64,000 nucleotides of DNA from an uncultured Chloroflexia bacterium (GCA_963727585.1 CAVSHH010000003.1:2218772-2282771), one strand, 5' to 3'. Shown: positions 4,708-64,000, counted from the stretch's first letter. Numbers and translations are program-made. The notes: a model not told the origin generated them from the letters alone.

Positions 4708-4893
4708 TCAGCGCTTGACGATCAGCCACAGCACGAGCAGGGCGAGACCCACGCCCAACACCGGCAGGACGCCCGCGGGCAGGGCGCTCGACACCGCGTC
4801 GACCATGCCCTGGAGCGCGGACCCGATCGCCGCGAGGGCGCCGCTCACGAGGCCCGAGATCCCGTCGCCCACCGAGCGCAGCAATCCGTCCAT
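4708..4893 (-). CDS. hypothetical small membrane protein (61 aa)
   Basis: Internal ATG of the 154-aa ORF. The C-terminal 61 aa form a glycine-zipper-like segment plus a hydrophobic helix (MDGLLRSVGDGISGLVSGALAAIGSALQGMVDAVSSALPAGVLPVLGVGLALLVLWLIVKR). The upstream part of the ORF is low-complexity. No clear Shine-Dalgarno. Confidence 0.3.
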   Translation of the reverse strand: MDGLLRSVGDGISGLVSGALAAIGSALQGMVDAVSSALPAGVLPVLGVGLALLVLWLIVKR

Positions 4894-43001: not shown

Positions 43002-43045
43002 ACCGGTCCGATCCGGGCCGATCCGGGCCGATCCGGGCCGGTCTG
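43002..43045. repeat. decamer tandem repeat (GATCCGGGCC x about 3.5) in the metK leader
   Basis: Read directly: tccgatccgggccgatccgggccgatccgggccggtctgggcc. Confidence 0.6.
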
Positions 43046-43096
43046 GGCCAGGCGCCGGTGCCCGGGCAGGCGACCGCGGCCGGGAGCGGGTGCCAG

Positions 43097-60144: not shown

Positions 60145-60687
60145 CTAGCGGGGCCGCAGTCGATCCAGCTCGAACGACCAGTCGTTGCAGGTCATCCAAT
60201 GGCCCGCCGGGTACTCGAACTCGCCGGTGTCCACGATCTCGTAGCCGAGCTTCCTGCACACCGTATTGGAGGCGGCGTTGTCCACCGACGGGAACGCGTG
60301 GATGGTCCCGTAGCCAGTCTCGGCCGCCGCGATCTCCATGCACCGCGCCGTGGCGCGGGTGGCGATGCCGCGGCCCTGGTGCTCCGGCAACACGGCCCAG
60401 CCGATCTCGAGCGCCGGCTCGCCGCGGATCTCGTGCGCCCAGTACACGACCGAGCCGACATCCTGGCCGTCCGAGCCCAGGGTCACCACGAACGTGCGAC
60501 CGGCCTCTGGCGCCAGCGCGAGGTACCGGTCCAGCCGCGACCGCAGCTGGGCGGGCGATTCCGGACCGCCCAGGTGGGTGGTCATGGCCGGGTCGCCAAG
60601 CAGCCGGCGCATCAGCTCGAGGTCGTCCGCGGTCCAGGGGCGGAGGTCGATCTCGATGGCGCGATCGGGGGACGGGCTCGCTTCCAT
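60145..60687 (-). CDS. GNAT family N-acetyltransferase (RimJ/RimL-like)
   Basis: ATG at 60687. WAVLPEHQGRGIATRATARCMEIA ... DNAASNTVCRKLGYE. Confidence 0.75.
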   Translation of the reverse strand: MEASPSPDRAIEIDLRPWTADDLELMRRLLGDPAMTTHLGGPESPAQLRSRLDRYLALAPEAGRTFVVTLGSDGQDVGSVVYWAHEIRGEPALEIGWAVLPEHQGRGIATRATARCMEIAAAETGYGTIHAFPSVDNAASNTVCRKLGYEIVDTGEFEYPAGHWMTCNDWSFELDRLRPR

Positions 60688-60714
60688 GCCGCAATCATCA
60701 CCAGGGCCGGGGAT

Positions 60715-60822
60715 TGCGCAACCGCCCCGTGGATGCGCAACACCGGGTCCAGTGAACGCGCAAACCCGCTCCGGTGACCGCGCAACCCGCGCCGTGATGC
60801 CGCAACCCGCTCCGTGATGCCC
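60715..60822. repeat. five degenerate about 21-bp direct repeats (consensus GCGCAACCCGCTCCGTGATGC)
   Basis: Read directly: gcaaccgccccgtggatgc / gcaacaccgggtccagtgaac / gcgcaaacccgctccggtgacc / gcgcaacccgcgccgtgatgcc / gcaacccgctccgtgatgcc. Confidence 0.55.
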
Positions 60823-60969
60823 GGCAGGGATTGCCTCCGGTGCATTGGCGTCGCGGTGATCCGCCCGCGGCATCACCGCGACACGATCACCTGTCCCGGC
60901 AGGCGTCGATCCGTCGCATTGATGCCGCGGCGGGGTCATGACGACTCCGGACCGCCGCCGGCAATCCCT
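60823..60969. repeat. about 147-bp segment bounded by 11-bp perfect inverted repeats (CAGGGATTGCC / GGCAATCCCTG), containing a strong internal hairpin; MITE-like or regulatory palindrome
   Basis: cagggattgcc at about 60825-60835 and ggcaatccctg at about 60959-60969. Internal hairpin gtcgcggtgat-ccgcccgcggc-atcaccgcgac at about 60851-60883. Confidence 0.4.
60851..60883 (-). terminator. candidate factor-independent terminator hairpin downstream of mfd (11-bp perfect stem, 11-nt loop)
   Basis: gtcgcggtgatccgcccgcggcatcaccgcgac is a perfect inverted repeat. There is no U-tract, which is common in high-GC actinobacteria. Confidence 0.3.
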
Positions 60970-60975
60970 GGGAGG

Positions 60976-61146
60976 GATCGGGCCGGAGTGGGATCGAGCC
61001 GGAGTGGGATCGGGCCGGGGGATCGGGCCGGAGTGGGATCGGGCCGGAGTCGGATCGGGCCGGGGGATCGGGCCGGGGGATCGGGCCGGAGTCGGATCGG
61101 GCCGGGGGATCGGGCCGGGGGATCGGGCCGGAGTGGGATCGGGCCG
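60976..61146. repeat. tandem repeat array, about 11.5 copies of alternating 16-bp (GATCGGGCCGGAGTGG/-TCG) and 13-14-bp (GATCGGGCCGGGG(G)) units
   Basis: Read directly across 60976-61146. Units are head-to-tail with no spacers. The array abuts the mfd stop. Confidence 0.9.
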
Positions 61147-61148
61147 GA

Positions 61149-64000
61149 TCAGACGCCGACCCCGGCCCGGCCGGCGCCAACCCCAGCCGCCGCCACCAGC
61201 CGCGAGACCACCGCCTGGGTCAGCGTCCAGCCCTTGAGCGGGTCGCGTGGCAGTCGGATCCGGACCTGGTTGGAGGCGAACGTGATGTCACCCGGACGCA
61301 CGCCGGGCAGCGGCGCCGTGCCGCCCGCCGCTCCGGGTGCCAGCAGCTGCATCGCGGTGGCACGCGAGAGGGCCGCCCCGAACCGCACCACCAGCCAGCC
61401 CTCCTCGCGGGCGACCGACGCGACGCCGGCCGACTCCGCCGACAGCCGCAGCTCGGCCACCTCGACCAGCCGCAGGGCGGGCTGGGGCATCGGCCCGTAG
61501 CGATCGGTGACGTCCTGGCGGAAGGCGGCGAGGTCGCCGATCGTCCGCGCCCGGGCCAGCCGCCGGTAGAGCTCCAGCTTCTGCGCCTCGTCGGGCACGT
61601 ACGAATCCGGCAGGTGCGCATCCACGGGAAGATCCACGACGGCCTGGGGCACCTCGCGCACCGGTTCGCGGTCCTCCCGCCGGGCCTTGGCCTCCTCGAC
61701 CGCCTCGGCCAGCAGCCGCGAGTACAGGTCGAACCCAACCGAGGCCATGAACCCGCTCTGCTCGCCGCCCAGGATGTTGCCGGCGCCGCGAATCTCGAGG
61801 TCGGCCAACGCGATCTGGAACCCGGCGCCCAGCTCGGACGCGTTGAAGATCGCCTGCAGCCGCTTGCGGGCCTCCTCGCTCATCCGCTCGCGCCGCCGGT
61901 ACAGGAGGTAGGCGTAGGCCCGGCGCGACGACCGCCCGACCCGCCCGCGGAGCTGGTAGAGCTGGGCAAGGCCGAGGGTGTCCGCGCGGTCGATGATGAT
62001 CGTGTTGGCGTTGGGGATGTCGAGGCCGCTCTCGATGATCGTGGTGCACACGAGGACGTCGGCCCCGCCGTCCGCAAACGAGAGCATCACCTTCTCCAGC
62101 GCGCCCTCGGACATCTGGCCATGCCCGACCACGATCCGCGCTCCCGGCAGCAGTCGTCGCAGCTGCTCAGCCTGTGCCTCGATGGTCTCCACCCGGTTGT
62201 GAACGTAGAACACCTGGCCGCCGCGGTCGAGCTCGCGCAGGACCGCATCGCGGACAAGGCCGGCCGACGCCTCCGCCACCCTCGTCTGGATCGGCAGCCG
62301 GTCCTCGGGCGGCGTCTCGATGACGCTCAGGTCTCGAATCCCGGCGAGGGCCAGGTTGAGCGTGCGCGGGATCGGCGTGGCGGACAAGGTCAGCACGTCC
62401 ACGGCCGATCGGAGCTGCTTGAGCCGCTCCTTGGCCGCGACGCCGAAGCGCTGCTCCTCGTCGACGACGACCAGCCCGAGGTCCCGGAACGCGACATCCT
62501 TCGACAACAGCCGGTGGGTTCCGATCACGATGTCGACCGTGCCTGCCTCGAGCCCGGCGACCGTCGCCGCCTGCTCCCGCGCCGACACGAACCGCGACAG
62601 CAGCTTCACGGTCAGCGGGAAGGCCGCGAAGCGCTGGGAGAACGTCGCGAAATGCTGCCCCGCGAGCACGGTGGTAGGGACGAGCACGGCGACCTGCTTG
62701 CCGTCCTGGGCCGCCTTGAACGCGGCGCGGAGGGCCACCTCGGTCTTGCCATAGCCGACGTCGCCGACGACCAGCCGGTCCATCGGTGTGCGGGTCTCCA
62801 TGTCGACCTTGGTCTCGACGACGGCACGCAGCTGGTCGGGGGTCTCCTCGTACGGGAACGACGCCTCCATCTCGGCCTGCCACGGTGAGTCGGCCGCATA
62901 GGAGAATCCCTGCGCCGCCGAGCGCTTGGCGTACAGCGCCAGCAGCTCGTCGGCCAGGTCGCTGACCGCCTTGCGCACCCGCTGCTTGGTCCGCAGCCAC
63001 TCGGTCCCGCCCAGCCTCGAGAGCTGCGGATGCTCCCCGCCCGAATATCGGCTGACGCGATTGATCTGCTCGACGGGGACGAAGATCCGATCGGTGCCGG
63101 CGAACGACAGCTCGAGGTAGTCGCGCTCCTCGCCCTCCGCGCCACGGCGGAGCATCCGCTCGTAGCGCGCGATGCCGTGGTCGATGTGGACGACCATGTC
63201 CCCCGGCGCCAGCCGCTCGAGCAGATCGCGCGGGACCACCCGGCGCATCGCCTTGGGCCGCCGGACCCGGACCGATCCGAACAGCTCGCGGTCGGTGACC
63301 ACGGCCAGCCCGTCCGGGCCGCCCTCGAACCCGCCGTTGAGGCTCCGCTCCACGAGCGCGATCGCGCCCGGGGGCGGCGCTTCGGCCACCCGTCCCACGA
63401 TCGCCACGGGATGCCCGGCGTCGTCCAGGAGCTCGGCGAGCCGCGGCGCCTGGTCGGAGGCGAGCACGACCCGCCGGCCCTCGCCCAGCCAGTGCTCCAC
63501 GCCGTCGACCAGCCGCTCCGTGCGACCCGGCGGCAGGACGGGTTCTCGCCAGCCGAACAGGTCGCCCGAGGTGAGCCCCTTCGACGCGTAGGCCATCCCC
63601 GCGGCAACCGCCGCCTCGGACTCCCAGGTCAGCTCGAGCGTCCGGGCGCCGTGGAGCCGCGCCTTCCAGTCGCGCGGCGGCAGGTACGCGGTCGGCCAGC
63701 CCTTCGGGAGCTCACCCTGTTCGACGAGCTCACCCTGTCGCTCGTCCGCCTGCGACCACAGGAAGTCGGCCGCGTCCGCCAGGTCGCCCGGCTCGTCGAG
63801 GACGAACAGCGTCGACGGGTCCAGGTGGTCGAGGCCCGTGGACGGGGCGACCAACCGGGCCCACACCTCGGCCGCGTCGGCCGCTGCCAGCGCGCGACCG
63901 GACGCGACCGTGACCGGATGCTCGGGCGACGCTTCACCGGCGAAGCGGGCGAGGTCCGCGGCCAGCCGCTCGGGCAGCCGCGCCCCCAGGCGGCCGAGCC
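61149..64000 (-). CDS. mfd: transcription-repair coupling factor, partial (N-terminus beyond window end)
   Basis: Contains the RecG-like SF2 helicase motifs (DVGYGKTEVALRAAF ... DEEQRFGV ... QLRGRVGRS), the RNAP-interacting domain and the C-terminal TRCF domain. The reading frame stays open through the window end, and the ORF-track start at 63866 is an internal GTG. Confidence 0.9.
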   Translation of the reverse strand, partial: LGRLGARLPERLAADLARFAGEASPEHPVTVASGRALAAADAAEVWARLVAPSTGLDHLDPSTLFVLDEPGDLADAADFLWSQADERQGELVEQGELPKGWPTAYLPPRDWKARLHGARTLELTWESEAAVAAGMAYASKGLTSGDLFGWREPVLPPGRTERLVDGVEHWLGEGRRVVLASDQAPRLAELLDDAGHPVAIVGRVAEAPPPGAIALVERSLNGGFEGGPDGLAVVTDRELFGSVRVRRPKAMRRVVPRDLLERLAPGDMVVHIDHGIARYERMLRRGAEGEERDYLELSFAGTDRIFVPVEQINRVSRYSGGEHPQLSRLGGTEWLRTKQRVRKAVSDLADELLALYAKRSAAQGFSYAADSPWQAEMEASFPYEETPDQLRAVVETKVDMETRTPMDRLVVGDVGYGKTEVALRAAFKAAQDGKQVAVLVPTTVLAGQHFATFSQRFAAFPLTVKLLSRFVSAREQAATVAGLEAGTVDIVIGTHRLLSKDVAFRDLGLVVVDEEQRFGVAAKERLKQLRSAVDVLTLSATPIPRTLNLALAGIRDLSVIETPPEDRLPIQTRVAEASAGLVRDAVLRELDRGGQVFYVHNRVETIEAQAEQLRRLLPGARIVVGHGQMSEGALEKVMLSFADGGADVLVCTTIIESGLDIPNANTIIIDRADTLGLAQLYQLRGRVGRSSRRAYAYLLYRRRERMSEEARKRLQAIFNASELGAGFQIALADLEIRGAGNILGGEQSGFMASVGFDLYSRLLAEAVEEAKARREDREPVREVPQAVVDLPVDAHLPDSYVPDEAQKLELYRRLARARTIGDLAAFRQDVTDRYGPMPQPALRLVEVAELRLSAESAGVASVAREEGWLVVRFGAALSRATAMQLLAPGAAGGTAPLPGVRPGDITFASNQVRIRLPRDPLKGWTLTQAVVSRLVAAAGVGAGRAGVGV

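Follow-up and report, generated by a model that had tools for sequence, protein, structure and literature searches.

The mycobacterial interspersed repetitive unit (MIRU) loci of Mycobacterium tuberculosis are variable number of tandem repeats (VNTR) minisatellites with units of 40-100 nt. The Correia elements of Neisseria, ERIC of enterobacteria and RUP of pneumococci are palindromic intergenic elements resembling miniature inverted-repeat transposable elements (MITEs), while iterons and operator arrays are repeats found at plasmid origins and as repeated transcription-factor sites. Here we compare with these systems the 461-nt spacer (60688-61148) between mfd and a GNAT N-acetyltransferase gene in a 64,000-nt stretch of DNA from an uncultured Chloroflexia bacterium (GCA_963727585.1, CAVSHH010000003.1:2218772-2282771; hereafter the window). 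Both genes lie on the minus strand and, along the direction of transcription, the spacer consists of a tandem array of short units (array A), a palindrome, a second tandem array (array B) and a promoter-like motif leading into the GNAT gene. An earlier interpretation made from this DNA alone (the sequence-only reading) had placed three structured elements in the spacer, and all three were recovered where it had put them. The anatomy is more orderly than it had seen, and the promoter-like motif, the G-quadruplex (G4) potential of array A and an inverted copy of an array unit within mfd are additions to it. With a probability of about 0.7, we consider the spacer to be a fast-evolving, slippage-generated, minisatellite-like locus that grew around an inserted palindrome, and not a conserved regulatory device.

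Like MIRU and other VNTR loci, this one has head-to-tail units, is high in GC, is non-coding and lies between co-directional genes. Its arrays have expanded in one lineage while a close relative lacks the expansion, and they have a higher-order structure that is typical of slippage and unequal exchange. It differs from MIRU in its units, which are 13/16 and 21 nt long, in that no dispersed family was seen, and in having two different arrays that flank one palindrome. Moreover, the host belongs to an uncultured Chloroflexota lineage, in which strain-level variation of the locus is a prediction. The palindrome calls to mind Correia, ERIC and RUP elements, which likewise are ~100-150 nt long, carry terminal inverted repeats, form one long hairpin when transcribed, lie between co-oriented genes and show a pattern of insertions and empty sites among relatives. 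Unlike those elements, the hairpin was found in one copy and has no clear target-site duplication. Array B shares with iterons and operator arrays its direct repeats of ~20-22 nt in helical phase beside a promoter-like motif, but it is degenerate, is not conserved in relatives and has neither a replication gene nor a regulator gene next to it.

The comparison with relatives is what carries our interpretation. The mfd-GNAT neighbourhood is syntenic in all relatives compared, and the junction between the two genes differs sharply. In L125 (630-645; GNAT 82% identical to that of the window at the amino-acid level) and L003 (4400-4410; 77%) the mfd stop and GNAT start codons overlap (ATGA), so that the genes would be translationally coupled there; in the window lineage they are separated and, as far as the sequence tells, separately promoted. 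L129 (87%) has a spacer of 58 nt, L127 (72%) ~130 nt of unrelated sequence and L001 (73%) 316 nt of unrelated sequence. In L128 (89%, together with the partial L002) the spacer is 272 nt long and aligns with the window across both flanks and through the palindrome. At the site of array A, L128 has 58 nt with one CCGGC..CCGATCCC, and at the site of array B a single unit; a single 21-nt unit is also present in L129. The two species thus differ by 12 units versus ~1 for array A and by 5 versus 1 for array B. Their mfd genes are 88% identical in nucleotides, with third-codon-position identities of 0.71 for mfd and 0.79 for GNAT, and the last 293 residues of Mfd are 98% identical, the tail of the window protein being 6 residues longer. 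On these figures, L128 is a congeneric but distinct species. The hairpin is absent from L129, L125, L003, L127 and L001, and the 58-nt spacer of L129 lines up with what borders the palindrome on either side in L128 (CCGATCCC ... GCATC ... GGTTGCGC), CCGATCCC being part of the last mfd codons in L129. Since the hairpin is common to the window and L128 while the arrays are found in the window only, the hairpin is the older feature and the arrays are young and lineage-specific.

Array A (60974-61147) adjoins the mfd stop codon, its first unit beginning one base past it. Tandem Repeats Finder (TRF), a count of the core and direct reading gave twelve head-to-tail units over 174 nt; half measure 16 nt (GGGATCGGGCCGGAGT and its AGTC variant) and half 13 nt (GGGATCGGGCCGG). 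The sequence-only reading had put the number at about 11.5; the array is real, and the count is twelve. On the plus strand the unit lengths run 16, 16, 13, 16, 16, 13, 13, 16, 13, 13, 16 and 13 nt; in transcription order they read 13, 16, 13, 13, 16, 13, 13, 16, 16, 13, 16 and 16, with three unit variants and a higher-order period of 42 nt. TRF (60974-61148) reports 11.9 copies at period 16 and 4.0 copies at period 42, the latter with 95% matches. Matches to the core GGATCGGGCCGG number 12 at 60975-61147 (one mismatch at most). The window as a whole has 18, where 3.7 would be expected and none of 100 shuffled sequences reached that number. Both arrays have the make-up of minisatellites, namely head-to-tail units within 10-100 nt and without spacers. 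For array A this had been proposed before, and the contiguous units, which follow each other start to start at 13 or 16 nt, bear it out; a CRISPR array is ruled out, as there are no unique spacers between units such as separate the 23-50-nt repeats of a CRISPR.

The unit itself does not appear to be a signal proper to this locus. In a scan of species-representative genomes, for which two adjacent 11-nt cores served as query, the 11-nt core was tandemly repeated in >120 unrelated high-GC genomes among the matches listed, mostly with 15-nt periods and differing linkers, which argues for a generic slippage-prone sequence. The sequence-only reading had named generic dispersal of its units as a finding that would lessen their locus-specific regulatory interest, and for the core this is in part what we see. 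Each unit contains GATC, to which no special meaning needs to be attached because this word occurs in this genome at its expected frequency (595 observed versus 594.6 expected). A Dam/SeqA-like role of GATC was rejected in view of that frequency and of the recurrence of the array core in unrelated taxa. We also rejected a CsrB-like sponge, i.e. a plus-strand RNA with many GGA motifs, as the array is absent in the sister species and transcription of the plus strand is unsupported. One of the arrays found elsewhere deserves mention: in a Thermoguttaceae metagenome-assembled genome (MAG; L007, JAFQOH010000062.1) an intergenic array at 4714-4806 holds 5.8 perfect copies of the 16-nt TCCCGGCCCGATCCAC, almost identical to the 16-nt unit CCGGCCCGATCCCACT of the window despite the unrelated phylum. 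It is probably an independent origin of a slippage-prone sequence, though the likeness of the linkers is striking. The 40-nt higher-order unit of array A had 0 matches in JGI metagenomes. Within the window, a second small array at 43003-43049 (CCGGGCCGAT x 4.7, period 10, 91% matches) has a unit that resembles the array A core (GGATCGGCCCGG on the minus strand) and lies just upstream of a minus-strand ATG at ~42965.

Taken together, these comparisons lead us to propose a stepwise growth of the spacer. The ancestral state, judged from the relatives, was a tight mfd-GNAT junction, either overlapping (ATGA) or with a spacer of ~58 nt that held the promoter-like motif just ahead of a putatively leaderless GNAT start. 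By the same comparison, a palindrome of ~146 nt was then inserted between the mfd end and the promoter in the common ancestor with L128, after which the hairpin drifted at an approximately neutral rate and yet stayed a hairpin. Finally, the window lineage alone amplified short hairpin-flanking sequences head to tail. Next to mfd, the starting sequence was CCGGC..CCGATCCC, which corresponds to the last mfd codons in L129 and grew to 12 units with a 42-nt higher-order repeat; next to GNAT, a 21-nt segment with the -35-like box grew to about five copies. Replication slippage together with unequal recombination is the likeliest mechanism, and it may have been favoured by the long palindrome, by the self-complementary words GATC, CCGG and GGCC in the unit and by the G4 potential of the G-rich strand; the neighbouring long palindrome would add to fork stalling. 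As to function, the hairpin and the structured array that precedes it may mark or stabilise the 3' end of the mfd transcript and separate mfd from GNAT. GNAT would have a promoter of its own, to which only the gene-proximal repeat unit contributes, whereas the extra units would be passengers whose number probably varies between strains.

A hypervariable VNTR locus was one of four candidate roles put forward by the sequence-only reading, and it is the one that fits best, as both arrays are missing in L128; the evidence for it is between species only. Several points weigh against our interpretation. The array comparison is one between species, so copy-number variation within the species is a prediction; a search of Mfd homologues for conspecific fragments with the tail of the window protein found none. 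The search of the source genome covered the 64-kb window, and further copies of the hairpin or the arrays could lie elsewhere. The covariation in the hairpin is weak, coming from two sequences, its score being attained in 72 of 500 shuffles. Array B, with a period of 21 nt or two helical turns, lies beside a promoter, just as real operator arrays do, and a newly acquired regulatory role of this array is possible. Lastly, promoter activity, a leaderless start, a role in termination and G4 folding are all predictions. Strain-level variation is nonetheless suggested by the absence of the arrays from the sister species, and if the arrays do vary between strains, they could serve as a length marker for typing this uncultured soil and freshwater Chloroflexota lineage in metagenomes. 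The same array locus is a likely break point for short-read assemblies.

A larger role for the palindrome is the alternative that survives best. The imperfect palindrome (60825-60970), delimited by an inverted-repeat search, folding and comparison with L128, ends in perfect 11-nt inverted repeats (CAGGGATTGCC / GGCAATCCCTG), with CAGGGATTGCC at 60825-60835 on the plus strand and again at 60960-60970 on the minus strand. It contains an inner perfect 11-nt stem (60850-60860 / 60872-60882), and overall its 67-nt arms are 70% complementary. The bounded segment and its stem had been described before, with a length of 147 bp that we correct to 146 bp. The pair of 11-mers taken alone is within chance (38 of 100 shuffles). 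The whole palindrome is predicted to fold into a single long hairpin of -98.5 kcal/mol (z = -3.69), with none of 200 shuffles as stable; over the whole spacer, the RNA fold is no more stable than that of shuffles (z = -0.36), so that the palindromic segment alone stands out. An Rfam 15 search of the region gave a best match of 19.7 bits against a gathering threshold of 40 bits (E = 0.54), i.e. at chance level.

The orthologous segment of L128 also folds as one long hairpin (z = -2.09), and in L128 and L002 its ends are GGGGATTGCC / GGCAATCCCC. The terminal inverted repeat has undergone a compensatory change, from CAGGG...CCCTG in the window to CGGGG...CCCCG in L128, and the consensus structure of the two has 4 compensatory pairs of 46. 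When the minimum-energy structure of the window palindrome is applied to L128, 89.5% of the cells are paired, versus 33-51% with slid partners, and there are 3 double changes. The two hairpins are 77% identical overall (0.80 in paired and 0.65 in unpaired columns), which is about the identity of third codon positions in the flanking genes; the constraint on the sequence is therefore slight.

Could the palindrome be a MITE-like non-autonomous mobile element akin to Correia, ERIC or RUP, and the locus one member of a dispersed family, with the arrays as secondary additions? A MITE remnant had been among the roles suggested earlier, and it is true that the hairpin behaves as an insertion: it is a 146-nt element without coding capacity, with perfect 11-nt terminal inverted repeats and a single hairpin, present in the window and L128, facing a collinear empty site in L129 and absent from the other relatives. 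A short direct repeat, ATCCC(C)G, lies at or overlaps both of its ends, and speaks for this reading. This microhomology is all there is in the way of a target-site duplication, none being unambiguous, and it would equally fit a deletion between short direct repeats. Furthermore, no second copy of the hairpin was found in the 64-kb window, L128, L001 or L003 (~35 kb of relatives), and the inverted-repeat ends with their sub-terminal bases had 0 matches in JGI metagenome contigs. The inner hairpin arms and the adjacent 21-nt unit have the motif GGCATCA in common, which opens another route to the same structure, a local inverted duplication by template switching, that explains the motif equally well. 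A MITE-like origin of the hairpin is possible, and we hold a dispersed family with one member here to be a rather unlikely, if respectable, account of the locus.

The G4 potential of array A may bear both on its instability and on what happens at the end of mfd. The plus strand, the template in transcription of mfd and GNAT, is G-rich across the array, and the mRNA-sense strand C-rich. Over its 174 nt the array has a G4Hunter score of 1.35, the maximum of the window (mean -0.01, standard deviation 0.21; 6.6 standard deviations away). It holds 21 tracts of three or more G and 4 of the 11 non-overlapping G4 motifs on the plus strand of the window, and folding with G4s allowed places 2-4 quadruplexes in the minimum-energy structure. 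By these predictions the array has the sequence properties expected of a G4-forming region (at least four runs of three or more G, loops of 1-7 nt, a high G4Hunter score). A GC content of 73% makes G-runs common here, and array A is nonetheless the extreme of the window. G4-forming minisatellites are unstable when their G4s are left unresolved (PMC2673046, PMC5491262). Array A is similar to the human CEB1-type minisatellites described in those studies in being a GC-rich tandem array whose G-rich strand repeatedly fits the G3+N1-7 rule; unlike CEB1 it is bacterial and has much shorter units, and both G4 folding and instability are predictions in its case. It is plausible that this potential offers a mechanism for the instability of the repeats. 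A further structure might form at the mfd end itself, where an inverted copy of an array unit lies within the last mfd codons (61156-61169, minus strand; CGGGCCGGGGUCGG in the mRNA, part of the tail ...GRAGVGV). This copy is 93% complementary over 14 nt to the AGTC-variant units of array A, so that the two could pair into hairpins spanning the stop codon.

We think it probable that the hairpin marks the mfd 3' end, and that it terminates mfd, one of the roles proposed earlier, is plausible. No U-run follows the long hairpin, as it would in a canonical intrinsic terminator, and a consensus scan of the region for promoters and terminators found nothing, with 0 canonical intrinsic terminator sites. 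A bolder idea is that a row of G4s (with i-motif potential opposite) and the hairpin together act as a roadblock that would stop transcription of mfd and shield the GNAT promoter, the unit number tuning the read-through and the structures driving their own instability. If true, this would be a newly evolved terminator, tunable by copy number, in a place where canonical hairpin-plus-U terminators are lacking. Attractive as it is, we regard this combination, built on predicted structures, as improbable.

The case for a function of the arrays as binding sites rests mostly on array B and on the motif it leads to. Array B (60716-60822), identified by TRF and repeat alignment, consists of about five degenerate direct repeats of 20-22 nt (unit in mRNA sense GCATCACGGAGCGGGTTGCG); the five degenerate 21-bp repeats seen in the sequence-only reading are thus borne out. 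The array begins beside the hairpin and ends 27 nt before the GNAT ATG. TRF reports 4.7 copies of period 20 at 60716-60814 with 73% matches, and 2.0 copies at 60781-60821 with 95% matches: only the two units nearest the hairpin are near-identical, and the others are degenerate. Every unit contains a TTGCG(C/G) box, and that of the last unit is the -35-like box of a promoter-like motif, TTGCGC-N16-GATGAT-N6-ATG (60685-60721, minus strand), which ends at the GNAT start codon. A scan of the window found this single match, against 0.02 expected. In an alignment of five lineages the motif TTGCRC-N16-SATSAT-N6-start keeps identical spacing, while the rest of the spacer sequence is unrelated. Its form is TTGCGC, N16, GATGAT, N6, ATG in the window, in L128 (5967-6003) and in L129 (652-688); TTGCAC, N16, CATCAT, N6, GTG in L127 (448-484); and TTGCAG, N16, CATGAT, N6, ATG in L001 (5967-6003). 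As the -10-like hexamer ends 6 nt before the start codon, transcription would start at the start codon itself and yield a leaderless mRNA. From its geometry and conservation we infer that the motif is the promoter of such a leaderless GNAT mRNA, and the fixed spacing in five lineages is a testable hint of leaderless transcripts in Limnocylindrales. The 21-nt unit spans from the hairpin edge through the -35-like box, which makes array B a five-fold duplication of the upstream half of the promoter, and only the unit nearest GNAT stands at the correct distance from the -10-like box.

Iterated binding sites had been suggested for this spacer. Spelled out, the 21-nt units would be iteron-like operators for a transcription factor controlling the GNAT/ASCH operon, and the 12 short units would bind a nucleoid protein or another DNA-binding protein. 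Such a reading draws on the ~21-nt period of array B (two helical turns), on its position, which reaches from directly upstream into the -35-like box and ends 27 nt short of the start codon, and on the high regularity of array A, with 95% matches at period 42. It does not fare well among the relatives. L128 shares the genes and the hairpin, yet lacks array A and carries a single 21-nt unit, and more distant relatives are without any spacer; hence the arrays are not needed for the regulation of GNAT or mfd in this group. At the orthologous site both the repeat units and their numbers differ, unlike what would be expected of a conserved operator. In addition, array B is degenerate, with 73% matches between its units, tandem copies of the array A core are found in unrelated phyla too, and a domain search identified no regulator gene beside the locus. 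Operators or protein-binding rows are thus a quite improbable explanation of the arrays, and we keep to slippage-driven growth as the one that best accounts for them. Intergenic tandem repeats of ~19-20 nt occur at other places in the relatives as well, namely at 969-1035 in L001 (3.2 copies), directly upstream of the pth start codon, and at 10947-11008 in L003 (3.3 copies), which suggests that promoter-proximal duplications of ~20 nt are common in this group.

It could also be asked whether array A is an artefact of assembly, a repeat collapsed or expanded in a MAG. A MAG is the apparent source, all of the closest named matches being MAGs, and the copy number of tandem repeats is what assemblers most often get wrong. 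Yet array A is no uniform run, as its three unit variants follow an ordered higher-order pattern, its 174 nt can be spanned by single reads, and its flanks align cleanly with L128 at both sides, all of which makes an artefact very unlikely.

The spacer is real non-coding repeat DNA. Its GC content by codon position is flat at 0.65-0.81, as opposed to ~0.7/0.5/0.93 in the flanking genes, and open reading frames (ORFs) across it have no Pfam match. The same holds for the Gly-rich ORF at 60938-61237, which exists and which the sequence-only reading had rightly taken for an artefact. That the array codes now or did so recently, as repeats added to the C-terminus of Mfd through read-through or a frameshift, or as a separate Gly/Pro-rich repeat protein, can be all but dismissed: several open frames do span array A, its 42-nt period is divisible by three, its seed corresponds to the final mfd codons of L129 and some Limnocylindrales Mfd tails contain short peptide repeats (e.g. 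PSPAGPSPAGPSPAE in P0193), but units of 13 and 16 nt change the reading frame unit by unit, codon-position signal and Pfam match are both absent, Mfd ends at the same position in all relatives, shortly past RLVAA, and at 73% GC open frames are expected by chance.

What does this locus add? Our current understanding of repeats and of Mfd is unchanged by it. It may be of use as a worked example of how a spacer grows, from a tight junction through insertion of a palindrome to tandem amplification on both flanks, in which part of a promoter was amplified on one side and a sequence originating in the final codons of the gene upstream on the other. A search of the literature on repeats or MITEs in the Limnocylindrales lineage found nothing relevant.

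The flanking genes are those named by the sequence-only reading, and ORFs and domains support both identities. The GNAT gene (60145-60687, minus strand) encodes an N-acetyltransferase of the RimJ/RimL type according to its ORF and a domain search, and a gene for an ASCH-GNAT fusion lies downstream of it; a GNAT protein of identical sequence (P0122) is on record. The 3' part of mfd, the gene for the transcription-repair coupling factor, occupies 61149-64000 on the minus strand and extends beyond the window; RID, DEAD, Helicase_C and TRCF domains were recognised, and the stop codon TGA is at 61151-61149. A truncation of mfd at 63866 was discarded, this position being merely the first start codon of the ORF listing, with the frame open to 64000. 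The G+C content of the window is 69-74% in 4-kb bins. A replication origin or terminus was likewise discarded, as there is no switch of GC skew in the window. The closest named Mfd homologues all come from MAGs labelled "Candidatus Limnocylindrales bacterium" (Chloroflexota). Across Limnocylindrales, the tail of Mfd past the conserved ...QAVVSRLVAA (61152-61200 in the window; P0127-P0295) is hypervariable, ranging from 3 to ~25 residues; given this variability in both length and sequence, the mfd end is a general hotspot of change in the group. Among the Limnocylindrales Mfd entries on long contigs, many span no more than 300-500 amino acids, compared with ~1290 for the full-length protein, which hints that frameshift errors or split gene calls are frequent in these MAG assemblies.

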